Virus record (IMG/VR): IMGVR_UViG_3300025853_009406
Location: 52,741 to 116,740 of that record
Origin: a virus
DNA length: 64,000 nucleotides
Reading direction: 5' to 3' (one strand)
A model generated the notes under the pieces. The model had not been told where the DNA came from and did no database searches. It saw only the letters and a list, made by a program, of their open reading frames with translations. This document shows positions 337 to 54,098 of this stretch, one piece after another; within the stretch, counting starts at the first letter, position 1, and each line of letters starts with the position of its first letter. Both the position numbers and the translations under genes were made by a program.

Positions 337-1121
337 AACACAATCCAATCACTACAATATATATCCTTAGTTTCAAGGTGTGCATTATTTGGACCAAACC
401 ATTCCTTAGGAGCAACAATAGTTTTTGCCTCCGATATATAAGCTCCCCACCAACTAAAAGTACTACTAGCAGTAATGATATATTGACACTTTGTCATCAG
501 ACATAGGTCAAGATATGCATCATCAGTTTCAGAAACTAAGAACCTATCAGAAGAAAAAATAGATTGCTTTTTGCACCATGCAGGATCATCAGAAAAGATT
601 AGAACCTCACAATCTCCAGGAATCTGATTCAAAGCTAGTTGAAAATAGTTTTCATTCTGAGAGTTATGACTCGGATTATTTACATAATCAGTTCTTCTAA
701 TGTGAATAGCGGCAACGTTTTCACTAAAAGAATCTCTTACTTCAGTTGCAACAGATTCATATTCCGATTTAAATTTAAAATCTTTTTTGATTTCATCTTT
801 AATATGATCAAACCATTTAGCACTTTGAAAGAAACCAAATAAGTTTACGTTTCCTTCTGGTAGATTTTCAAATAACTCTGGATCAAATCCAAACCCTTTC
901 TCCTGAACAGTAGGAAAATCAGAGATACCACGTTGGCAAACAATGTCAAAGCAATCGTCAATATTACTTCTAAGTTTTGTATAATAATGTTTACCAAATA
1001 CCTCAGTTGGAGGAATCATAAAATCCTTACCATGCTTTACAGCAATACCTTTAGTAGCTGCGTACTGGAACATTTGATTTCCCAAATGTCCATTATTACC
1101 AAGATGATTAAACGATATCAT
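333..1121 (-). CDS. GT11 alpha-1,2-fucosyl/colitosyl-transferase
   Basis: GHLGNQMFQYA, HIRRTDY and SSTFSWWGAY motifs. Confidence 0.92.
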   Translation of the reverse strand: MISFNHLGNNGHLGNQMFQYAATKGIAVKHGKDFMIPPTEVFGKHYYTKLRSNIDDCFDIVCQRGISDFPTVQEKGFGFDPELFENLPEGNVNLFGFFQSAKWFDHIKDEIKKDFKFKSEYESVATEVRDSFSENVAAIHIRRTDYVNNPSHNSQNENYFQLALNQIPGDCEVLIFSDDPAWCKKQSIFSSDRFLVSETDDAYLDLCLMTKCQYIITASSTFSWWGAYISEAKTIVAPKEWFGPNNAHLETKDIYCSDWIVL

Positions 1122-7984: not shown

Positions 7985-8206
7985 CTACTTTTTATGCCGT
8001 TTGTCAAATGGTTCCCAATGTTCCCATCCATATTTGTGAACTGCCCACATACCAAGGATAGGGACAAAGACGAGAGACGCTGAAAGAAATCCCATAGTCC
8101 ATGGATTATTTAGTACCCATCGAGAAAAATGTGCTACTTCATGTATCATGGATTTTAAGGTATAAAACATGAAAGTAAAATTAAAGTTTCCATTACATAC
8201 TCCCAT
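7985..8206 (-). CDS. Small membrane hypothetical protein
   Basis: Hydrophobic segment followed by HKYGWEHWEPF; true start probably internal. Confidence 0.6.
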   Translation of the reverse strand: MGVCNGNFNFTFMFYTLKSMIHEVAHFSRWVLNNPWTMGFLSASLVFVPILGMWAVHKYGWEHWEPFDKRHKK

Positions 8207-8408
8207 TTCTAAATCCTACTATATACCCAAGTAGAAGTCCGCACATAAATGATACCCACAGGTATAGCACATGAGATGTAAATGCAATAAACTCCATCCA
8301 TTCAGTATACGTCATCATCCCCCTCGTAAAGTGGGCATGGTTCTTCGAATAACAATAGCATTCGCATCTCTTTAACTTTTTCCTGCAACTTTTCGTAGTC
8401 TTCTTCAG

Positions 8409-8612
8409 TCATAATGTGATGTTCATCCATGAGAATACGGGTGGTATTACTCCAATAAGTCGAAGTAAACCCTCAGCAAAAAGTGCAAGAACAACCCAAC
8501 CAACACACATACTAATAATCGAAGCATTCCGATTATGACGACGTATTGCAGCATCGATCATCTCCTGGACTTCACTGCGACTTACATAATCATCATCAAA
8601 AGGACTCATCAT
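8409..8612 (-). CDS. Small membrane hypothetical protein
   Basis: EVQEMIDAAIRRHNRNASIISMCVGWVVLALFAEGLLRL. Confidence 0.7.
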   Translation of the reverse strand: MMSPFDDDYVSRSEVQEMIDAAIRRHNRNASIISMCVGWVVLALFAEGLLRLIGVIPPVFSWMNITL

Positions 8613-8880
8613 TTCTCGTCCCCCAGATACTTTGCTGCTGGATCTTTTTTAGTCTTTACTATAGCACAAGCTCTTTTGTAAAACATGTTGTCTGTATTCC
8701 CAGACTCTTCAAAAACAGCTTTGACCTTTACCCAGTTTTGATAAGTATGATCGTCCATGTGTTTTTAGCTTATTTACTAGTTATGATATTATTCTAGTGA
8801 CTAGTAAAAAACTTGCATGGTTTATATCGATACCGTAACACTGTTTAAGAAAATATTAAATATTAAATATTAAATAAAAA

Positions 8881-8899
8881 GGAAGATCAGGGATTCGAA
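8881..8899 (-). pseudogene. 3' remnant of a tRNA (Ser-like)
   Basis: TTCGAATCCCTGATCTTCC directly after the stop codon of the upstream CDS; rest of the tRNA absent. Confidence 0.55.
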
Positions 8900-8902
8900 G
8901 TT

Positions 8903-9163
8903 TTAGCGGACTTCAAAGTCCAACTTACGAACATTGCGTTGTCTTCTTGCCTCTTGCCAGGCAATATCTTCAGGACTTAAAACATTATTTGATTGCTTTG
9001 ACTTGTAAGTGTTTAACATAACTACCTGAGATAAGTCAACTGCAGAAATATTTTCATAATCTCTAATGGTTGCCATATTTGGACAACCACAAGTAACAGT
9101 TTTTCCGACAACCCCTAAAAGTTCTTTAGAACATGACTTGCATCTTATTTTTACAGGATCCAT
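8903..9163 (-). CDS. Zn-ribbon hypothetical protein
   Basis: CKSC...CGCPN; start moved to MDPVK because the longer ORF overlaps tRNA-Ala. Confidence 0.7.
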   Translation of the reverse strand: MDPVKIRCKSCSKELLGVVGKTVTCGCPNMATIRDYENISAVDLSQVVMLNTYKSKQSNNVLSPEDIAWQEARRQRNVRKLDFEVR

Positions 9164-9192
9164 AATATAACATGCTTTCTTATTATTTATAA

Positions 9193-9265
9193 TGGAGAAT
9201 AGCGGACTCGAACCGCTGACAGCCTGCTTGCAAAGCAGATACTCTACCAACTGAGCTAATTCCCC
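9193..9265 (-). tRNA. tRNA-Ala (TGC)
   Basis: GGGGAATTAGCTCAGTTGGTAGAGTATCTGCTTTGCAAGCAGG...GGTTCGAGTCCGCTATTCTCCA. Confidence 0.95.
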
Positions 9266-9266
9266 T

Positions 9267-9293
9267 TGCCCGTTAGGTTGGACTCGAACCAAC
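9267..9293 (-). pseudogene. 3' remnant of a tRNA (intact T-arm only)
   Basis: GTTGG-TTCGAGT-CCAAC followed by CTAACGGGCA; no D or anticodon arm in the 30 nt after tRNA-Gly. Confidence 0.55.
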
Positions 9294-9322
9294 TACTGAA
9301 TGTAAGGAACCAAAAGGTTCAG

Positions 9323-9393
9323 AGCGAAATACGGGATTCGAACCCGTGACACCAACTTGGAAGGATGGGATGTTACCACTACACCAATTTCGC
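9323..9393 (-). tRNA. tRNA-Gly (TCC)
   Basis: GCGAAATTGGTGTAGTGGTAACATCCCATCCTTCCAAGTTGGTGTCACGGGTTCGAATCCCGTATTTCGCT. Confidence 0.93.
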
Positions 9394-9460
9394 ATTTGAT
9401 GGAGTAAGTGTGATATATCTCATAAGGATATAACAGTGACTTACCCTCTATCACTTTTAT

Positions 9461-9489
9461 ATATTACACCAGTTCTTGGATATTGTCAA
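9461..9489 (-). promoter_or_regulatory. Sigma70-type promoter for tRNA-Gly/Ala
   Basis: TTGACA-N17-TAATAT. Confidence 0.65.
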
Positions 9490-9956
9490 GTCCAAAGGTT
9501 ATGGTCATATTCCCAGTGGCAATTTGGACATAATGGCATTATGTTTTCCTTTGAGTTTATAACACTAATCATAACTTCTTCACTAAAAGAAGATATTGGT
9601 TTTATGTGAGCAATTTCTATATGTTTATTATATCCACATTTAACACATTCGGTAAATCCAAGTTTTTTTCCAAATGCTCTTGCTCGTGTTCTTACCAAAG
9701 CAAATGCTGAGGACTTGTGATGTTTTTCATATATTGCTTCTTTAAGGGTCATATCTTTTACTTCTCTATCTTTTAACCATATCAAATAGTGTTCTTTACA
9801 ACGAGCACGATTTGCTGTTATTGCTTTTCCACAATCAATACATTTATGCTCTGGTTTTCTTTTAGGAACTTTTTTATTATTATAAGAAGCAGCACAACTT
9901 CTTCCACAAAATTTTGGATTTTTTGTTTCTACTTTACAAAACAAGCACTTATTCAT
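9486..9956 (-). CDS. Free-standing HNH homing endonuclease with N-terminal Zn fingers
   Basis: CLFC..FCGRSC and CIDC..CKEH, then CVKCG..IEIAHIKP...NSKENIMPLCPNCHWEYD (HNH core). Confidence 0.88.
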   Translation of the reverse strand: MNKCLFCKVETKNPKFCGRSCAASYNNKKVPKRKPEHKCIDCGKAITANRARCKEHYLIWLKDREVKDMTLKEAIYEKHHKSSAFALVRTRARAFGKKLGFTECVKCGYNKHIEIAHIKPISSFSEEVMISVINSKENIMPLCPNCHWEYDHNLWT

Positions 9957-9960
9957 AATG

Positions 9961-9999
9961 GAACCTTAAAGTTATTTTTATTTATAAACCTTAAGGTTC
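9961..9999 (-). promoter_or_regulatory. Late promoter TATAAATA inside a 13-bp hairpin covering the HNH RBS
   Basis: GAACCTTAAGGTT-TATAAATAAAAAT-AACTTTAAGGTTC-CATT-ATG. Confidence 0.75.
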
Positions 10000-10005
10000 A
10001 AAAAA

Positions 10006-10288
10006 CGTCTCAGGAGGGACTCGAACCCCCGACCAACTGCTTAGCTTACCACTACGGATTTCCCCGCCATTTCTGTTTGTGGTCTGGACTTTCTCTTTAC
10101 CATATCCTAAAAGGACTTAGGCACTTCCCGTCAAGTCTCTACACCTTCATCTTACGATGCTTGGCTCGGGATTATCATAGTCTTAAGACTTTAGAGTTCC
10201 CCGAATTTGAGAAGTTACATTTATAAAGTTTCCCTTATAAAGCTCCTTTGTTAAAGGCAGATGCTCTTTCCAACTGAGCTACTGAGAC
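10006..10288 (-). tRNA. tRNA-Arg (TCT) interrupted by a group I intron (exons 10254-10288 and 10006-10044)
   Basis: 5' exon GTCTCAGTAGCTCAGTTGGAAAGAGCATCTGCCTT and 3' exon CTAAGCAGTTGGTCGGGGGTTCGAGTCCCTCCTGAGACG join to give anticodon loop CT-TCT-AA. Confidence 0.92.
10045..10253 (-). ncRNA. Self-splicing group I intron (IC3 type), 209 nt, no ORF
   Basis: Follows exon U and ends in G; P1 CUU/GAG; P AAATTCGGGGAA, Q AATCCCGAGC, R GTAGAGACTTGACGG, S AAAGAGAAAGTCC; colinear with cyanobacterial tRNA-Leu(UAA) introns. Confidence 0.92.
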
Positions 10289-10374
10289 AAGAGACCTCCC
10301 TGTTTGTGCATCGTTGAGAGGCATGGGAGGGGTGAGACTTATACGAAGTGTGGACCTTCGCTGCTCATAAGACA

Positions 10375-10403
10375 ATCATACCAGTTAAAGATTTGATTGT
10401 CAA
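10375..10403 (-). promoter_or_regulatory. Sigma70-type promoter upstream of tRNA-Arg
   Basis: TTGACA-N17-TATGAT. Confidence 0.75.
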
Positions 10404-10470
10404 GTGTTTTGAGGTCTTACTGGATTTATGAAGTGGCCAGTTTCTACACTAGTTAAAACCTCATTTTTAT

Positions 10471-10656
10471 TTATTCATCGCCCAAAACAAGATATGTCAT
10501 TTCTTCTTGATCTGGAGGAATATTGATCCATTCATCAAACTCTTCTGCAATCGCTACTGCGTCAAACTGAGATTCAATATCACCTTCTGCAAGGTCATGG
10601 ATTCTATTGATTGACCATTCACGAATAAGTTTTACTGGTTCAATCGTCTTTTCCAT
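10471..10656 (-). CDS. Small acidic hypothetical protein
   Basis: MEKTIEPVKLIREWS...DAVAIAEEFDEWI; start moved to 10656. Confidence 0.65.
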   Translation of the reverse strand: MEKTIEPVKLIREWSINRIHDLAEGDIESQFDAVAIAEEFDEWINIPPDQEEMTYLVLGDE

Positions 10657-10882
10657 AATAATCTTTTCTGAAGTATCTGCTGAGGATGTTACTATTGTAG
10701 TATGCTGGTTCTCCTGTGTCAAGGGATTCGGTGAGGACGTTGTTCTGGAAGAGTTGTTTTGTTTCTTCAAAGTTTGTTTTGCCTTTTGTTTTGTGGAGGG
10801 AGAGGATAGTCCGTCTGAATATCCCCTTGCCATATTTTTCCACATCTTCTTTAAGTTCTGGGCAAGATCCATAATAGTTTTT
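10640..10882 (-). pseudogene. C-terminal fragment of the resident GIY-YIG (Seg-like) gene
   Basis: KNYYGSCPELKEDVEKYGKGIFRRTILSLH...EETKQLF...YYNSNI; continuation of the fragment at 11664-11819. Confidence 0.8.
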
Positions 10883-10894
10883 ATAGGTGTTATC

Positions 10895-10923
10895 ATCTTA
10901 AGATATTTATGGAATAAAGTCAA
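10895..10923 (-). promoter_or_regulatory. Outward-facing sigma70 promoter with nested late promoter at the insertion edge
   Basis: TTGACT-N17-TAAGAT with CATAAATA inside the spacer. Confidence 0.6.
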
Positions 10924-10966
10924 GAATATTTTCAGTATAAATATTTTTATGGTAGAAAATATTTTT
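10922..10966 (+). promoter_or_regulatory. Late promoter TATAAATA (10936-10943) inside a hairpin ending at the start codon
   Basis: AAGAATATTTTC...TATAAATA...GAAAATATTTTT-ATG. Confidence 0.65.
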
Positions 10967-11671
10967 ATGACTTGGAAGTATAACAGTGAAGATTTTATAG
11001 AGTCCCCAAAGGGGATAGAAGGATTTGTTTATCTAATAACAAACTTAACCAATGATAGAAAATATATTGGAAAGAAATCTTTTTGGACAAGAAGAAAAGA
11101 TAAAAAAACTGGTAGAAGAAAAACAAAAGAAAGTGATTGGAAAAATTATTTTGGTTCCTGCGATGAACTAAATGAAGATGTAAAACTTCTTGGTAAAGAT
11201 ATTTTTTTGAGGGAAATTCTTTATTTGTGCCCTCACAAAAAATCAATGTCTTACTATGAAACCATGGAACAATTCAAAAGAGATGTTCTAATGACTGATG
11301 ATTATTATAACACAAATATTGAAGGAAGATTTTTTGTTAGTGAAAGATCTGGAATATATGAAGTTGTTATGAAAAATGATAAGTTTTGTGATATGAGAAG
11401 TGAGAAAATGAAAGACAAATCATATAACCCAATGTATAAACCAGAAGTTCGTGAAAAATTTAGTAAGATGTATTCGGGTGAAGGGAATCCAATGTATGGA
11501 AGAAAACTCACAGAAGAACATAAAAAAACACTTACTACATCAAGAAATGTTAGAGTAAGTGATGGAGAAAATGTTTGGGAAAGTGTTACTTCATATATGA
11601 AAGATAAAAAAATTGGGTTTAAAAAATATAAAGCACAATTACAAGAGGGATTAATTTTTATCGTTAACTAA
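10967..11671 (+). CDS. GIY-YIG homing endonuclease with C-terminal NUMOD3 DNA-binding motif
   Basis: GFVYLITNLTNDRKYIGKK, YYNTN, GEGNPMYGRKLTEEHKK. Start at 10967 (or 10949); the ORF-track N-terminal extension is antisense shadow. Confidence 0.9.
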   Translation: MTWKYNSEDFIESPKGIEGFVYLITNLTNDRKYIGKKSFWTRRKDKKTGRRKTKESDWKNYFGSCDELNEDVKLLGKDIFLREILYLCPHKKSMSYYETMEQFKRDVLMTDDYYNTNIEGRFFVSERSGIYEVVMKNDKFCDMRSEKMKDKSYNPMYKPEVREKFSKMYSGEGNPMYGRKLTEEHKKTLTTSRNVRVSDGENVWESVTSYMKDKKIGFKKYKAQLQEGLIFIVN

Positions 11672-11819
11672 TTCTATTATATTTTCTCCCAACGTATTGT
11701 CGTTGGTTGGAGAGATTGGTAATGTTATAAACAAAACCAAAGTAGTCCCCAATATCATCGCTATTAAAAGCTCGTTCCATGTAAATCCAAGGATTTTCAT
11801 AATCAATATCGATATTCAT
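11664..11819 (-). pseudogene. N-terminal fragment of the resident GIY-YIG gene
   Basis: MNIDIDYENPWIYMERAFNSDDIGDYFGFVYNITNLSNQRQYVGRKY, then a premature stop 4 codons into the insertion. Confidence 0.82.
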
Positions 11820-11964
11820 CAAGTATATCAAGAACTTTGTTTAAGTATTTATGAGCAAGATCTCTCTCACCCTTCAATACTGATGAAGGTTCTTGATCTA
11901 CCTGAGTCTTTAATTTTAGCACACGAACCTTGAGTTCGTCTTTCTTTACTCCATTGCTTGGCAT
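11803..11964 (-). CDS. Small hypothetical protein (53 aa)
   Basis: Manual translation MPSNGVKKDELKVRVLKLK...AHKYLNKVLDILDEYRY. Confidence 0.6.
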   Translation of the reverse strand: MPSNGVKKDELKVRVLKLKTQVDQEPSSVLKGERDLAHKYLNKVLDILDEYRY

Positions 11965-11987
11965 AAAAAATGTTGTATCTTCACTAT

Positions 11988-12206
11988 CTATGTTGTTATT
12001 CCAGTAAACTCATCAAGCACATCATGATTTCCAAACATAAAGTCATCATATTCTGCTGCTCGTTTATAAGCATCTAAACAAAGTTTAACTTCATCCTTGC
12101 TTGGTTTAGGAGGAGTCAATGGTTCGATTGAATCCATAAACTCCCACTCTTCTTTATATTTTTCTATACTATAGCTTGAATCCTGAGAATGTGTTGGACT
12201 GGACAT
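11988..12206 (-). CDS. Hypothetical protein
   Basis: ORF after nrdB; start uncertain. Confidence 0.5.
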   Translation of the reverse strand: MSSPTHSQDSSYSIEKYKEEWEFMDSIEPLTPPKPSKDEVKLCLDAYKRAAEYDDFMFGNHDVLDEFTGITT

Positions 12207-13350
12207 CTTGTTTAATTCCTCCTACTAAGTAAGATTCTGATTCAGTCTCCTGAGGAGCAACTTGAAGACCTTTGGAAGAAATCCAATGCTGCGTCCATGG
12301 GAGTGGATTATTATTCGCAGAAATATCATACTGAGGTTTTAACCCGATTGCTTTTAATCTCCTATTGGCAATCCATTCTACATACTGTTTTAGCAGTTTG
12401 TCGTTCAAACCAATCATAGATCCATCTTTGAACAAATAATCTGCCCACTTCTTTTCTTCATTTACGGCAAGATCAAATGCCTTATAAGTCCACTCTTGTT
12501 CTTCATCTATGATCTTTTTCATTTCAGGATCATCACCAGATTTCCATTTGTTCAAAATGTTTTGAGTAATTGCAAGATGCTGATTTTCGTCTCTGGCGAT
12601 GAGAGAGATAATCTTAGCGGATCCTTCCATAAGTTTGAGTTCTCCAAATGCAAACGAGCAAGCGAAGGAGACATAGAACCTAATACCTTCAAGAATATTG
12701 ACATTTGCAACTGCTCTGTACAGTTTTCGTTTGACATCATTGATCTCCCATTTAGAACTTGGTGAAGATCTGAAGTCTTCTTTCCACATATTGCCAGTGC
12801 CCCACATTTGAGCACTACGAATAAAGTCATCATATGCTTCTGTAACGCTTCTAGAACGCTCTAGAATACGCTCGTCAGTGACAATCTTATCAAATACTTC
12901 AGATGGGTCTGAATAAACGTTTTTAATGATGTATGTATAAGAGCGACTATGGATCATTTCCATGAATCCCCACACTTCTATACATGCCTCAAGTTCAGGG
13001 AGTGAGCAATATGGAAGGAATGCCATATTAGGTCCACGACCCTGAATAGAATCAAGCATGATCTGATACTTCAAGTTAGAAGTATAGATGTGTTTCTGTT
13101 CTGGTTCTAGTGTTTGATAATCTCCACGATCTTTTTGTAGTGAGACTTCCTCTGGTCTCCAAAAATATCCAAGTTGTTGAGTAGTAAGTTTATCAAAGAT
13201 TGGATATTTGTAAGAATCATATCTTTGTGGACCTAAAGGTTTACCAAAGAACATTGGTTGCTTTTTAGTGTTCACTTGTTCAGTATTAAATACTGTCATA
13301 CCTTCAATCGTATTAATCTGTTCTTTGGTTGTCAGAAAGTCGTATTGCAT
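12169..13350 (-). CDS. nrdB: Class Ia ribonucleotide reductase beta subunit
   Basis: FWRPEEV, EMIHSRSY, LEGIRFYVSFA, RDENQH, VAPQETE. Confidence 0.98.
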   Translation of the reverse strand: MQYDFLTTKEQINTIEGMTVFNTEQVNTKKQPMFFGKPLGPQRYDSYKYPIFDKLTTQQLGYFWRPEEVSLQKDRGDYQTLEPEQKHIYTSNLKYQIMLDSIQGRGPNMAFLPYCSLPELEACIEVWGFMEMIHSRSYTYIIKNVYSDPSEVFDKIVTDERILERSRSVTEAYDDFIRSAQMWGTGNMWKEDFRSSPSSKWEINDVKRKLYRAVANVNILEGIRFYVSFACSFAFGELKLMEGSAKIISLIARDENQHLAITQNILNKWKSGDDPEMKKIIDEEQEWTYKAFDLAVNEEKKWADYLFKDGSMIGLNDKLLKQYVEWIANRRLKAIGLKPQYDISANNNPLPWTQHWISSKGLQVAPQETESESYLVGGIKQDVQSNTFSGFKL

Positions 13351-13377
13351 TCGTTGCCTCGTTAAAATATAAAGTCG

Positions 13378-15675
13378 TTAGATTTTGCAGGATTCACAAT
13401 CCTCTTGTTCATACTCTTCTATTTGATTTAGTAAATCTTGAAGTTCTGATTTTTCTTCATCAACTTCATCACTCTTACTATCGTAAGTATTTTGATAATA
13501 AGATGTCTTCCAACCGTACTTGTATGTGGTTAGTAAGTCTTTTGCCATTTCCGAAACAGGCACTTCTTTGTTTGGATAGTTTTCTGGATTATAAGACCAG
13601 TTTCCACTGATTGCCTGATCAAAGAACTTTTGAATGACTGAAATGCACTTGATGTATCCGTCATTATTTTCCATATCCCATAGAAGAGTATAGTTATTCT
13701 TCAGTGTAGAATAGGATGGAACAATCTGCTTAAGAGGCCCTTGTTTTGACTTTTTAATGGACAAGTATCCTCTAGGAGGTTCGATTCCATTGGTAGCGTT
13801 TGACACAACGGAACTGCTTTCTGAAGGCATTTGTGCGGACAATGTTGAGTGCCTAAGACCGTGATCCAAGATGGATGCCCTAAGCTTCTCCCAATCACGT
13901 TCTAACTCCTGGTTGCTAATCTCGTCTACATCTTTCTTATATGTATCAATCGGAAGAATTCCATCTGCATACTTTGTACGACCAAAGTTTTCGCACCAAC
14001 CCTTTTCCTTTGCAAGTTGATTAGAAGATTTCAAGAGATAAAACTGAAATGATTCTGAGAGACCATGAATTGCATCCCATGCTTCCTGAGAGTCATATTT
14101 AAACCCTAGTTTAGCAAGGTAATGTGCTAGACCAATAAAACCAATTCCAAGGGATCTACGTGCCCTTGTAGCGCGTTCTGCTGCCTTCACAGGATACTCC
14201 TGGTAGTCAATCAGTTCTTCGAGTCCACGGACGGAAAGATCACACAACTCTTCAAGTTCAGAATCCGATTTAATCTTACCAACATTAATAGCAGAAAGAA
14301 TACACAGAGCAATCTCACCAAACTCATCATCAATATGAATGATAGGATCTGTTGGGAGTGTAATCTCTTGGCAGAGGTTAGACATGTTAACCTTGTCTTT
14401 AAAAGATGAGTGTGTATTGGAATGGTCGATATTCATAATGTAGATACGACCAGTCTCTGCCCTCTCCTTCAGAAGGTTTAGAATGAGTTCTTGAGCACCG
14501 ATAGTTTTTCTTGGAATAGACTGATCTGATTCATAATCATTGTATAGTGCATCAAATCTATCAGTACCAAAAGCATCATACAGAACAGGAACGTCGTGCG
14601 GACTGAAGAGGGAGATGTCTTGGTTGTTGATGAAACGCTCATAGAACAGCTTGCTGATTTGAATGGAGTAATCTAGTTTACGAACTCGGTTATCTTCTGT
14701 GCCTTTGTTGTTCTTAAGGACTAGAATGTCTTCGATTTCTTGGTGCCAGATTGGGAAGTGGACAGTCGCTGATCCACCTCTGATGCCATTCTGAGTGCAG
14801 CATCTGACAGTTGCTTCAAACTTTTTGAGGAAAGGGACAACGCCTGTGTGCTGAACTTCTCCGCCTCTGATTTTGCTGTTGATGCCACGGATGCGACCTG
14901 CGTTGATACCGATGCCCGCCCTTTGTGCAACGTATCTGCCAATAGCCATATCAGAGCTAAAGATAGAATCGAGGGTGTCATCAACATCAACAAGAACACA
15001 GCTAGCAAATTGTCGAAGTGGAGTTCGCACTCCCGCCATGATAGGTGTGGGAATGTTGATTTTGTGTTTGGAGATGGCATCGTAGTAATCCTTAACGTAT
15101 TTGAGACGTGTCTCTTTAGGATACTTGGAGAAGATGGTTGCCGCAATCAGAAGATACATGAACTGTGGCGTTTCGTAAAGAGAACCACTACTCCTATCTT
15201 GTACAAGATATTTATCTACAACTTGCCGTAATCCAGCATATGTAAACAAATAGTCACGACTATGATCAATCATTGATTGAAGTTTATCAAACTCTTCATT
15301 AGTATAAAGATCCGCAATTTCTGCATCATAAACTCCTTTTTTGATGCATTCATCTACATGTTGTTTTACAGTCGGAACCTCATGCATACGTCCATACAGT
15401 TGCTTTCGAGTGGCAAACAAAAGCAGACGTGCCGCAACAAACTGATAGTTGGGGTGATCGAGGTCAATTAGGTCACTTGCAGAACGAATCAGGATCTCCT
15501 GAATCTCTGCTGTAGTAATACCATCATAAAATTGAATACCAGATTGCATTTCAACCTGAGAAGCAGAAACTCCTGCCAGATCTTTACATGCTTCCTCCAC
15601 CATTACGTGAAGTTTATTTAAATCAAGAGGTTCAGTTTTTCCATTTCTTTTGACGACCTTTGTACCGTTACTCAT
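13378..15675 (-). CDS. nrdA: Class Ia ribonucleotide reductase alpha subunit
   Basis: ATP cone VVKRNG, FASCVL, SNLCQEI, KTSYY, C-terminal CESC. Confidence 0.98.
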   Translation of the reverse strand: MSNGTKVVKRNGKTEPLDLNKLHVMVEEACKDLAGVSASQVEMQSGIQFYDGITTAEIQEILIRSASDLIDLDHPNYQFVAARLLLFATRKQLYGRMHEVPTVKQHVDECIKKGVYDAEIADLYTNEEFDKLQSMIDHSRDYLFTYAGLRQVVDKYLVQDRSSGSLYETPQFMYLLIAATIFSKYPKETRLKYVKDYYDAISKHKINIPTPIMAGVRTPLRQFASCVLVDVDDTLDSIFSSDMAIGRYVAQRAGIGINAGRIRGINSKIRGGEVQHTGVVPFLKKFEATVRCCTQNGIRGGSATVHFPIWHQEIEDILVLKNNKGTEDNRVRKLDYSIQISKLFYERFINNQDISLFSPHDVPVLYDAFGTDRFDALYNDYESDQSIPRKTIGAQELILNLLKERAETGRIYIMNIDHSNTHSSFKDKVNMSNLCQEITLPTDPIIHIDDEFGEIALCILSAINVGKIKSDSELEELCDLSVRGLEELIDYQEYPVKAAERATRARRSLGIGFIGLAHYLAKLGFKYDSQEAWDAIHGLSESFQFYLLKSSNQLAKEKGWCENFGRTKYADGILPIDTYKKDVDEISNQELERDWEKLRASILDHGLRHSTLSAQMPSESSSVVSNATNGIEPPRGYLSIKKSKQGPLKQIVPSYSTLKNNYTLLWDMENNDGYIKCISVIQKFFDQAISGNWSYNPENYPNKEVPVSEMAKDLLTTYKYGWKTSYYQNTYDSKSDEVDEEKSELQDLLNQIEEYEQEDCESCKI

Positions 15676-52664: not shown

Positions 52665-54098
52665 TCACATAAGGTTCTCAACACGTACTCTTCTGTAGTA
52701 ACGGTTGGAGTTAACGTTCATGCGTCCGAGACCTGCAGTGGTTCCTTCAGCGAATGGGTTAGCAACAAGACCGTAGCGGGTCTTAAAGCCGATCTTAGGC
52801 TGGAAGGTGTTCTCTCCAACGGCACGAACCATCTGGAGGGGAACATATGGGCAATAGAACAGACCAGCGTCATAAGGTGAAGAACCCTTATAACCTGCAA
52901 CGTAGTATTGTCCACCACTAGCATTGGGGTTAGAACCACCAGAATAAGGATCGATATATACGCGATACTTACCAGCAAGTACACCAGCGAAGGTGTTACC
53001 AGTATCATCAACCTGGAGGTTAGCGTTAAGAGCAGGGGTGTAATCGAGTACACCAGCCATGGTCAGAGCGGAAGCAACGTCTGCAGAGCAGAGGATCATG
53101 TTGCCTTTTCCACGACGAGTTTCGGTTGCGATTGCGTTAGCATCACGCTCGATTTGGAAGATAAGTCCCTTGAACTTCTCAACACTCCAGCGACCGTTGG
53201 AGTCAACGTCGAGGTCGAAACGACCAGGGTTAGCAACATTGTGCTGAGCACCAGACTTAGCAGTCTTATAGATGGTGCGGATAACTTCGCGGTTGATCTC
53301 AGCAAGGATCTCAGTGGAGAGAATGTTTGCGAGTTCTGCTTCTGCATTCAGACCGTGGATCGCTCTCAGATCTTGGGCAAGCTCAAGGCTGTATTCTGCT
53401 TTCAGAGCACGGCTCTTAGCAGTAACAGCAACTTTCTCGATTGAGAAAGCCATCTGGTTGAAGTGATCTCCATCCTCAGAACCGAGTGCTTCAGCATCTT
53501 CGGTATTCATACCGCGTCCAACGGTATAAGCAGCCTGAGTGGAGTTGGAGTCTGGGCTCAGAAGACCAGGGTTAGATCCACCTTGTGCAGCAGTGGTACC
53601 AAATCCAACAGCACCACCAGAACTTGAACCTTCATTACCAGTATAACCAGCACTAGTGAGGTCACGTCCATCGTCTTGTGCGGAATATGCGGTATCTGGC
53701 TCGTTGAAGAATGCTTCGTCGGCAGATCCAGGTGCGCCATACTTAGAGCGCATTGCGAAGATCAGTCCAGTAGGACCATTCATTGGTTGAACGCCAGCGA
53801 GGTCATATGCGACCAGGTTAGGCATTGAACGTCTGATCAAAGAGATCAGAACGGGATCGAAACCAGCAACAGGAGCGGAAGCATCAGCAGAGAAACCTGC
53901 GGTTCCTCCCGATGAACCAGTGCTCATGTTTGGTGTTTCGTACAGGAACTCACGCTCCTCACGAAGTGATTTTTCTTGGTTCTCTAACAGGATTGCGGTA
54001 ACAGCTCTGCGATGGGAATCTTTGATCGAATCCATGCCCTCGTAGTCGAGGACTGGTGCCCACTTCTCCTGCAGAGCTTCAGCATTGAAACTTTGCAT
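52665..54098 (-). CDS. gp23: Major capsid protein
   Basis: FDPVLISLIRR, GVQPMNGPTGLIFAMR, KSRALKAEYSLELAQDL, FYCPYVPL, FQPKIGFKTRYG. Confidence 0.99.
   Translation of the reverse strand: MQSFNAEALQEKWAPVLDYEGMDSIKDSHRRAVTAILLENQEKSLREEREFLYETPNMSTGSSGGTAGFSADASAPVAGFDPVLISLIRRSMPNLVAYDLAGVQPMNGPTGLIFAMRSKYGAPGSADEAFFNEPDTAYSAQDDGRDLTSAGYTGNEGSSSGGAVGFGTTAAQGGSNPGLLSPDSNSTQAAYTVGRGMNTEDAEALGSEDGDHFNQMAFSIEKVAVTAKSRALKAEYSLELAQDLRAIHGLNAEAELANILSTEILAEINREVIRTIYKTAKSGAQHNVANPGRFDLDVDSNGRWSVEKFKGLIFQIERDANAIATETRRGKGNMILCSADVASALTMAGVLDYTPALNANLQVDDTGNTFAGVLAGKYRVYIDPYSGGSNPNASGGQYYVAGYKGSSPYDAGLFYCPYVPLQMVRAVGENTFQPKIGFKTRYGLVANPFAEGTTAGLGRMNVNSNRYYRRVRVENLM

Follow-up and report, generated by a model that had tools for sequence, protein, structure and literature searches.

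Among described systems, the closest to the locus analysed here are the endonuclease genes of T4 and its relatives. According to the sections of a T4 review used here (PMC2988022), free-standing and seg enzymes of T4 often cut hundreds of base pairs away from their own gene, segD is antisense to its neighbours, and a promoter/hairpin arrangement comparable to the one reported below is found in I-TevI, I-TevII, I-TevIII, segB and mobE of Aeromonas phage Aeh1. The same sections describe an I-TevI operator that lies over the gene's own promoter and mimics the homing site, and an I-TevI binding site that straddles the insertion point. Endonuclease genes may also alternate at one locus, SegH and Hef replacing mobC and mobE in T-even phages (sections of PMC2988022 and PMC3653736). 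Here we describe a locus in a 64,000-nucleotide stretch (hereafter the window; positions 52,741 to 116,740 of the 116.7-kb IMG/VR virus record IMGVR_UViG_3300025853_009406) of a T4-like cyanophage; of the named phages, Synechococcus phage S-SM2 (Kyanoviridae) is the most closely related to it, with 81% nucleotide identity across short segments. A plus-strand gene for a GIY-YIG endonuclease (the cassette) is inserted backwards into a minus-strand gene of the same family (the resident). With a probability of about 0.75, we consider the cassette to be a free-standing seg-type homing endonuclease gene spread by intronless homing in cyanomyoviruses.

The resident is a 148-codon SegE-type GIY-YIG gene situated downstream of nrdB and present in two pieces (Table 1). 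The minus frame of the N-piece (11831..11664) reads ...GFVYNITNLSNQRQYVGRKY and then continues with NRIS and a stop (11664-11666) in insert DNA, and that of the C-piece (10897..10640) reads DDNTYKNYYGSCPELKEDV..., or in a fuller view (DDNTY)KNYYGSCPELKEDV... to the stop at 10640. When compared with the Pfam family SegE_GIY-YIG (PF19835), the N-piece matched profile positions 1-37 (E 1.3e-12) and the C-piece positions 57-123 (E 9.7e-25), with about 19 profile positions absent between them. S-SM2 has an uninterrupted 148-aa open reading frame (ORF) at the matching place, preceded by nrdB and a 53-aa ORF and followed by the next gene and a tRNA cluster, and DNA alignment with this phage puts the breaks at 10882/10883 and 11679/11680. 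The left break was confirmed by a contig of sequencing run X2 and by intact-allele contigs, which diverge from the window at 10882. In comparison with intact alleles, 797 bp have been gained and 53-60 bp lost, removing the codons FW...KKES/ESDW (17-20 codons), and the corresponding figures for the sister pair of viral contigs L010 and L109 are 798 nt in and 89 nt out. In relatives of the L010 type the C-side junction still reads ...TDDWKKYYGSC, from which the DDNTY of the window is seen to be a slightly altered vestige of the ESDW junction (DD corresponding to SD). No direct repeat flanking the insert was found.

Contigs from independent public runs of other studies cross each of the two junctions with zero mismatches (X2, 10400-11044 and 11401-11756; X4, 10673-11044 and 11510-11756), and both junctions recur in independent IMG/VR contigs (L005, L010, L015 and L049). 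An assembly artefact is therefore excluded. The initial annotation, which was made from the sequence of the window, had proposed the backward insertion, and the translations, the Pfam matches and the S-SM2 alignment confirm it; the junctions that it drew are likewise supported, no target duplication has come to light, an intact gene does lie downstream of nrdB in relatives (S-SM2 and many contigs), and its estimate of about 20 lost codons was off by no more than 2-3. When 39 intact residents were aligned with 10 domains of the insert type, W51 and R61 proved to be invariant, and both fall in the lost stretch, which forms the β-hairpin after the YIG strand in an AlphaFold2 model of the resident (predicted local distance difference test score (pLDDT), 81). 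Because the segment containing these residues is gone, the resident is inactivated in this genome and is a dead gene.

The cassette encodes a complete protein. Its match to PF19835 extends over positions 1-123 of 123 (E 1.7e-37; 128.8 bits, cut-off 25), and the NUMOD3 motif scores 26.2 bits (cut-off 20.4), bearing out the earlier description of an intact homolog with a NUMOD3 tail. The protein has GFVY and YIG, and R50, E98 and N115/N117, invariant in 36 homologues, are candidates for the conserved downstream Arg, Glu and Asn of the GIY-YIG superfamily; its AlphaFold2 model was too poor for a fold search (pLDDT 53). No Rfam match to a group I intron was found in 10883..11679 at E values up to 1, and the cassette cannot be an intein because its gene lies on the strand opposite to that of the host gene, so that the absence of a splicing element, also claimed initially, is upheld. 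The cassette ORF is intact in all 35 copies sampled, with lengths of 232-235 aa and the DNA-binding tail retained, and the ratio of nonsynonymous to synonymous substitution rates (dN/dS) is 0.13 overall, 0.07 in the nuclease part and 0.20 in the tail; a few copies are truncated (L075-77 and L081-84). The 55 nt ahead of the start codon are conserved among carriers, in most of 18 diverse loci aligned, and include a T4-type late-promoter box TATAAATA, which is the only plus-strand copy among nine in the window. A hairpin may form around this box, which would then occupy the loop (arms 10922-10933 and 10955-10966; -17.7 kcal/mol, z -4.4), and the 3' arm adjoins the start codon. In the helix 87% of the cells are paired, compared with 53-68% when the partners are slid; RNAalifold did not recover the hairpin as a consensus. 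By resemblance only, this leader recalls the regulation of T4 endonuclease genes. Taken together, the sequence features support the assignment of the cassette as a complete homing-endonuclease-type gene (GIY-YIG+NUMOD3) with a promoter of its own.

Relatives of the cassette are encoded in 226 of 227 viral-contig stretches, with 67-98% identity to the 234-aa protein and mostly at the same locus. The insertion is old and widespread rather than fresh in this genome. For the comparison of loci, the best 80 viral contigs from each search (with the cassette and with the intact resident) were kept, which constitute a non-random sample. Among the 80 cassette loci, nrdB lies downstream on the opposite strand in 56, and a remnant of the resident persists in 59 (32 both pieces, 17 the N-piece only and 10 the C-piece only). 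The N-piece is kept as far as GRKY in the window and L005, is followed in L012, L016 and L074 by 21 further cassette bases not in the window, and in most other carriers reads only ...GFVYLITNK and then stops. The C-side is also variable: the C-piece may adjoin the cassette, be separated from it by a 186-aa ORF, or be lost but for the last ~50 nt. The junctions of all carriers nevertheless share a common core, with differing later deletions. This one core points to a single founding insertion, and the changes of allele state are accordingly taken as recombination transfers of an existing allele, not as repeated new insertions.

Presence and absence of the cassette interleave on trees, the pattern to be expected of the mobile allele that had been surmised. 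In the nrdB phylogeny, whose 116 rows comprise 54 carriers and 62 intact alleles, the allele state has to change 13 times, at least nine of the changes being forced by well-supported branches, compared with 38.5 on average for shuffled labels. A tree of the C-piece (246 nt; 99 rows, 19 remnants and 80 intact) shows eight changes, at least five of them forced; the remnants do not form one clade, and several nest among intact alleles. The identity of the cassette does not follow that of the backbone: the cassettes of L024 and L012 are both ~89% identical to that of the window, with nrdB identities of 97% and 69%, respectively. The cassette is present sporadically at one locus, with the empty-site allele among close relatives, and contigs with the intact allele and with the cassette allele occur in the same sequencing runs. 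In L010/L109 the flanks are 88.7% and 91.2% identical near the insert and 94.5% far from it, which fits co-conversion; among the four insert/intact sister pairs compared, L015/L112 does not fit, and no claim is drawn. Mobility is well supported, and we infer the role of the enzyme in it.

The resident itself is a conserved cyanophage gene. By tblastn, an intact resident was found in 442 phage records, nearly all of Synechococcus or Prochlorococcus phages, at one place in each, with coverage of 80% or more of the query in 437 of the 442. The gene is encoded in at least 599 viral contigs (599 of 600 among the matches listed), 79 of the 80 contigs kept were scored as having a full-length intact allele, and the synteny is the same in nearly all. 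Two phages of other genera, ACG-2014d and S-SCSM1, likewise have the resident downstream of nrdB. The dN/dS among intact alleles (0.17, 529 pairs) shows purifying selection. A single-copy, syntenic, near-universal and nuclease-only distribution is unlike that of a typical, sporadic homing endonuclease, and it fits the initial view of the resident as conserved and probably domesticated. In a structural comparison of the resident model, the four best matches among 48,161 chains were all GIY-YIG domains (I-TevI, Z 7.5; PD-T4-3, Z 6.7; UvrC, Z 4.5; T4 EndoII, Z 4.3), and the best superposition was obtained with the I-TevI catalytic domain (1ln0; root-mean-squared deviation (rmsd), 2.8 over 82 residues). 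The Foldseek E-values for the model were weak (0.12-0.36), and sequence searches of the Protein Data Bank returned no meaningful match for either the resident or the insert.

The records treat this gene unevenly. In the S-SM2 GenBank entry (GU071095, 140273-140716; L001 3990..4436) the resident is unannotated and replaced by two wrong-frame ORFs, one of them named 'sodium:alanine symporter', and elsewhere it is labelled 'NAD synthetase', 'hypothetical', 'GIY-YIG endonuclease' or 'homing endonuclease'. The family phrog_447, matched by both the resident and cassette proteins, is itself named 'NAD synthetase', and this label on the resident looks like a propagated misannotation. An annotation can thus be corrected for a near-universal GIY-YIG nuclease of Kyanoviridae, which is absent from the S-SM2 record and widely called 'NAD synthetase'.

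The C-piece is overlapped in the +1 frame by the downstream gene. The ATG of this gene (10872-10870) is situated within the most conserved DNA of the resident, with the left cassette junction 10 nt upstream, and the +1 frame is open over the last ~84 codons of the resident and runs on into the downstream gene. In 70 of 79 intact alleles this frame is open for at least 75 codons, compared with 509 of 3950 synonymously recoded controls (13%), and its stops average 0.30 against 1.64 expected; the N-terminal part of the resident shows no such deficit. The downstream gene is thus likely, on the evidence of its reading frame, to be an overprinted gene. The overlapping ORF probably accounts for the conservation of the C-piece DNA (remnant dN/dS, 0.21) and, as its ATG sits there, for a dip in third-codon-position entropy in the resident. 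Low third-codon-position variation at resident codons 61-76, beside the C-side break, had also been considered as a mark of the endonuclease target, and was dropped because the overlapping ORF explains it better.

The cassette and the resident belong to the same family, and the cassette is no recent derivative of the resident, as judged from their sequences. The two are 49% identical over 111 residues. Of the 56 domains placed on a tree, the 41 of the resident type make up one clade (support 96/87), and a long branch separates them from the NUMOD3 forms. The latter group with a pair of short antisense genes (143-145 aa) in phages S-SRM01 (L167 2995..3426) and B23 (L168 2998..3435); since the outgroups (Melnitz, phiM12 and Ps15) are on very long branches, the tree is not reliably rooted. 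The low identity and the separate clades do not support the 'mobile derivative' of the initial annotation, nor does the occurrence of the nearest relatives in S-SRM01 and B23. With 73% and 67% identity, respectively, these two genes are the closest relatives of the cassette nuclease domain in cultured phages. They have no NUMOD3 tail, are antisense to their neighbours and occupy the corresponding region (in B23 near nrdB) with no remnant of the resident, and they may be truncated endonucleases or an ancestral form. The window also contains a 41-nt inverted repeat (78% complementary; 10842..10882 and 11141..11181) in the homologous KNY(Y/F)GSC...EDV coding stretches of the two genes, which is well above their overall similarity and could be a substrate for recombination.

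An old and immobile insertion would give a different history of the same allele: the cassette would have entered once and come down by vertical descent and ordinary recombination, its ORF being co-opted, for example as the sole GIY-YIG nuclease. The one core junction in all carriers agrees with such a history, and so do the dN/dS of 0.07 in the nuclease part, a stronger constraint than expected of a purely selfish gene, the 21 of 80 loci in which the cassette is the only family member left, and the condition of S-SRM01 and B23, which have only the antisense short relative at the slot. Against it stand the interleaving of allele states on the nrdB and C-piece trees, the uncoupled cassette and backbone identities, the DNA-binding tail retained in 35 of 35 ORFs, and the coexistence of both alleles in single runs, which together fit ongoing horizontal spread better than pure descent, so that an immobile insertion appears unlikely.

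The two pieces of the resident might alternatively both be made and assemble into a working nuclease, as with nrdA of Aeh1, which is split by mobE; a precedent of a split but functional gene is mentioned in sections of two papers (PMC3653736, PMC2988022). The C-piece is open with a median dN/dS of 0.21 among carriers (125 remnant pairs), the remnants of the window clade range from 0.13 to 0.29 except for one pair (0.70), and in the N-piece the start codon is preserved, as is the overlap with the upstream ORF. The main argument for a functional split nuclease was that the C-piece is conserved, and this argument is removed by the overlapping +1-frame ORF, which accounts for the conservation. Moreover, 17-20 codons including W51 and R61 are gone, the C-piece has no start codon at its head, and the N-piece is further shortened in most carriers before running into stops; a gene in pieces is thus highly improbable. 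An assembly chimera, or an inversion between two paralogues, might be suspected in a window from a metagenome-derived virus record in which the 41-nt inverted stretch is common to both genes. Such an origin is refuted in practice by the junctions themselves, bridged in contigs of other studies and recurring in independent IMG/VR contigs, and an inversion between paralogues would not leave the resident pieces and the insert ORF complete and collinear with intact relatives.

For homing of a free-standing endonuclease gene, the following course can be proposed. In mixed infections, the cassette enzyme, probably made late from its own TATAAATA promoter, would cut genomes with the intact allele; repair would then copy the cassette, together with some flanking donor DNA, into the cut genome, and the split and deleted site would render carriers immune. 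More speculatively, the original insertion may have been a single illegitimate repair event, which would account for both the few lost bases and the missing target duplication, the recognition site may span the codons ...IGRKY|FW... at the N-side break, and a look-alike of this site in the leader may serve as an operator, as in I-TevI. The leader motif TGGTAGAAAATATTTTT (10949-10965, 17 nt) resembles TGGGAGAAAGTATTTTT, the IGRKYF codons located precisely at the N-side break. When a 70-nt leader was compared with intact alleles, the best match spanned the RKY|FW break in 114 of 230 pairs, which are non-independent, and in 69 of 1150 pairs with shuffled leaders; the match peaks at 16 of 17 nt (L024 with L085). 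It is plausible that the cassette target lies inside the resident and that the insertion removed its own recognition site, as initially proposed, a view that agrees with the layout of the locus and with this leader mimic, and the leader motif offers a possible, rather than probable, clue to the target site. The farther-reaching proposal is that the enzyme recognises DNA of the catalytic core of its own family (...YIGRKY|FW...), keeps an operator mimic, knocks out a paralogous core gene across Kyanoviridae while sparing the overlapping ORF, and possibly substitutes for the lost nuclease, a replacement that the initial annotation had offered as a conjecture; this combination seems doubtful to us.

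Several points weigh against homing by the cassette and against its proposed target. Covariation of the hairpin is not significant across the aligned loci, and the TATAAATA octamer is not rarer than expected by chance, as the AT-rich window has 9 copies where 7.1 are expected. The 17-nt leader motif is rich in purines and in A/T, a copy with 15 of 17 matches is present inside the cassette's own ORF at 11052-11068, and the leader/allele pairs counted above depend on one another. Since T4 seg enzymes often cut far away, the target could be nrdB or lie elsewhere. No remnant of the resident was detected by tblastn in 21 of the 80 cassette loci, although 17 of these 21 still adjoin nrdB or the 53-aa ORF. 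General homologous recombination among co-infecting cyanophages could also interleave the alleles, and the trees were built on the best 80 loci of each search, a sample that is not random. The cassette protein is covered to no more than 60% by any record of the 'phages' collection, and from these data no cultured carrier is known. Finally, we infer cleavage and biased inheritance by the cassette enzyme from patterns at the sequence level only.

Table 1. Positions of the resident, the cassette and adjoining features in the window
Feature	Position	Strand	Description
Resident N-piece	11680..11819	-	ATG at 11819 to ...YVGRKY; collinear with intact S-SM2 allele
Resident C-piece	10640..10882	-	KNYYGSC... 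to stop 10640-10642; no start codon at head
Inserted cassette	10883..11679	+	797 bp, not in intact alleles; from DNA alignment with S-SM2
Cassette endonuclease gene	10967..11671	+	Intact, 234 aa; GIY-YIG aa 3-118, NUMOD3 aa 159-187 (nt 11441-11527)
Conserved cassette 5' region	10922..10966	+	Late-promoter box, possible hairpin, leader motif
T4-type late-promoter box TATAAATA	10936-10943	+	23 nt before ATG
Overlapping gene	10471..10872	-	+1 frame over whole C-piece; phrog_23981, E 1e-34
Syntenic anchors	11803..13350	-	Order as in S-SM2 and most related loci
nrdB	13350..12169	-	nrdA precedes on minus strand
72-aa ORF	12206..11988	-	Between nrdB and 53-aa ORF
53-aa ORF	11964..11803	-	Overlaps resident start

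In the own record of the window, the SegE_GIY-YIG family has three matches, all three of which are accounted for by the N-piece, the cassette ORF and the C-piece. Contigs from RNA libraries (X6 and X7) also span both junctions; such contigs show neither strand nor transcription and are no evidence of expression. Outside the cassette, the tRNA-Arg(UCU) gene (10005..10289, minus strand) has its anticodon loop split by a 209-nt group I intron, as found with aragorn using its intron search, and the corresponding Rfam Intron_gpI match (10063..10264, 66.5 bits) is the only one in 8000-14000. Just downstream of this tRNA is a free-standing HNH endonuclease ORF (9486..9956, minus strand) with its own TATAAATA box (9979-9986), and just upstream is an abiF RNA motif (10294..10330, minus strand; 53.8 bits). 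None of the 16 related loci scanned has the intron, the tRNA-Arg of S-SM2 is intronless, and no report of the arrangement was found among the open-access papers searched. The intron may be a second, independent mobile element, possibly paired with the neighbouring endonuclease. The 186-aa minus-strand ORF between the cassette and the C-piece (L024 2343..2903; Pfam S-AdoMet_lyase, E 1.7e-8; phrog_12788) occurs at the same place in L007, L013, L014, L019-L023, L028, L030, L050 and L053, and may be a further cargo gene at a hot spot. In another cassette carrier, L062, positions 622..848 of the minus strand match the cyano_tmRNA model (transfer-messenger RNA; 99.9 bits) and also the permuted tmRNA model, and L021 and L022 have a manA RNA adjoining tRNAs.

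If the cassette is the homing endonuclease gene that we take it to be, the locus would be a clear natural case of a free-standing homing endonuclease inactivating a conserved phage gene, with neither an intron nor an intein to cushion the damage. As empty, freshly occupied and decayed alleles coexist in public metagenomes, the cycle of invasion, fixation and erosion becomes traceable in wild cyanophages. The locus also provides a concrete candidate recognition sequence and a candidate operator. No description of the cassette, or of a homing endonuclease gene inside a phage gene of its own family, was found among the open-access papers searched.

The gene for T4 endonuclease II (DenA), a nuclease-only GIY-YIG enzyme, is located next to nrdB, and the resident is like this enzyme in that it is a GIY-YIG protein of small size with a nuclease domain only, its gene lying just downstream of nrdB. 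The two differ in that the resident has no sequence match to EndoII, and the structural match (2wsh) is weak (Z 4.3; rmsd, 3.6 over 82 residues) and below that of I-TevI. We considered the resident as the counterpart of T4 denA and set this identification aside, position and size being its only grounds.

The cassette is like the T4 seg genes (segA-G), which encode free-standing GIY-YIG homing endonucleases and spread by intronless homing, in its SegE_GIY-YIG domain and NUMOD3-type tail, in having no intron or intein, in its variable presence, and in the late-type promoter near upstream. Unlike the seg genes, which stand between genes, it sits inside a gene and destroys it, and its cleavage site and homing are predictions. 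With I-TevI of the td intron, which represses its own synthesis through its operator and has a late promoter within a hairpin that sequesters the ribosome-binding site, it has in common the order of GIY-YIG domain, linker and DNA-binding part, the TATAAATA box in a stable hairpin by the start codon, and a 17-nt mimic of the insertion site; in contrast to I-TevI, the cassette gene is not intron-encoded, and an operator and such sequestration are putative here. Sections of two papers (PMC2988022, PMC3653736) describe mobE in nrdA of Aeh1, which is likewise a free-standing endonuclease gene within a coding gene of the nrd neighbourhood. The split nrdA of Aeh1 stays functional, whereas the resident has lost 17-20 codons, decays, and belongs to the endonuclease's own family. 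The cassette is thus a known kind of phage mobile element, and its landing place is unusual, with partial precedents in mobE of Aeh1 nrdA and in SegH and Hef.

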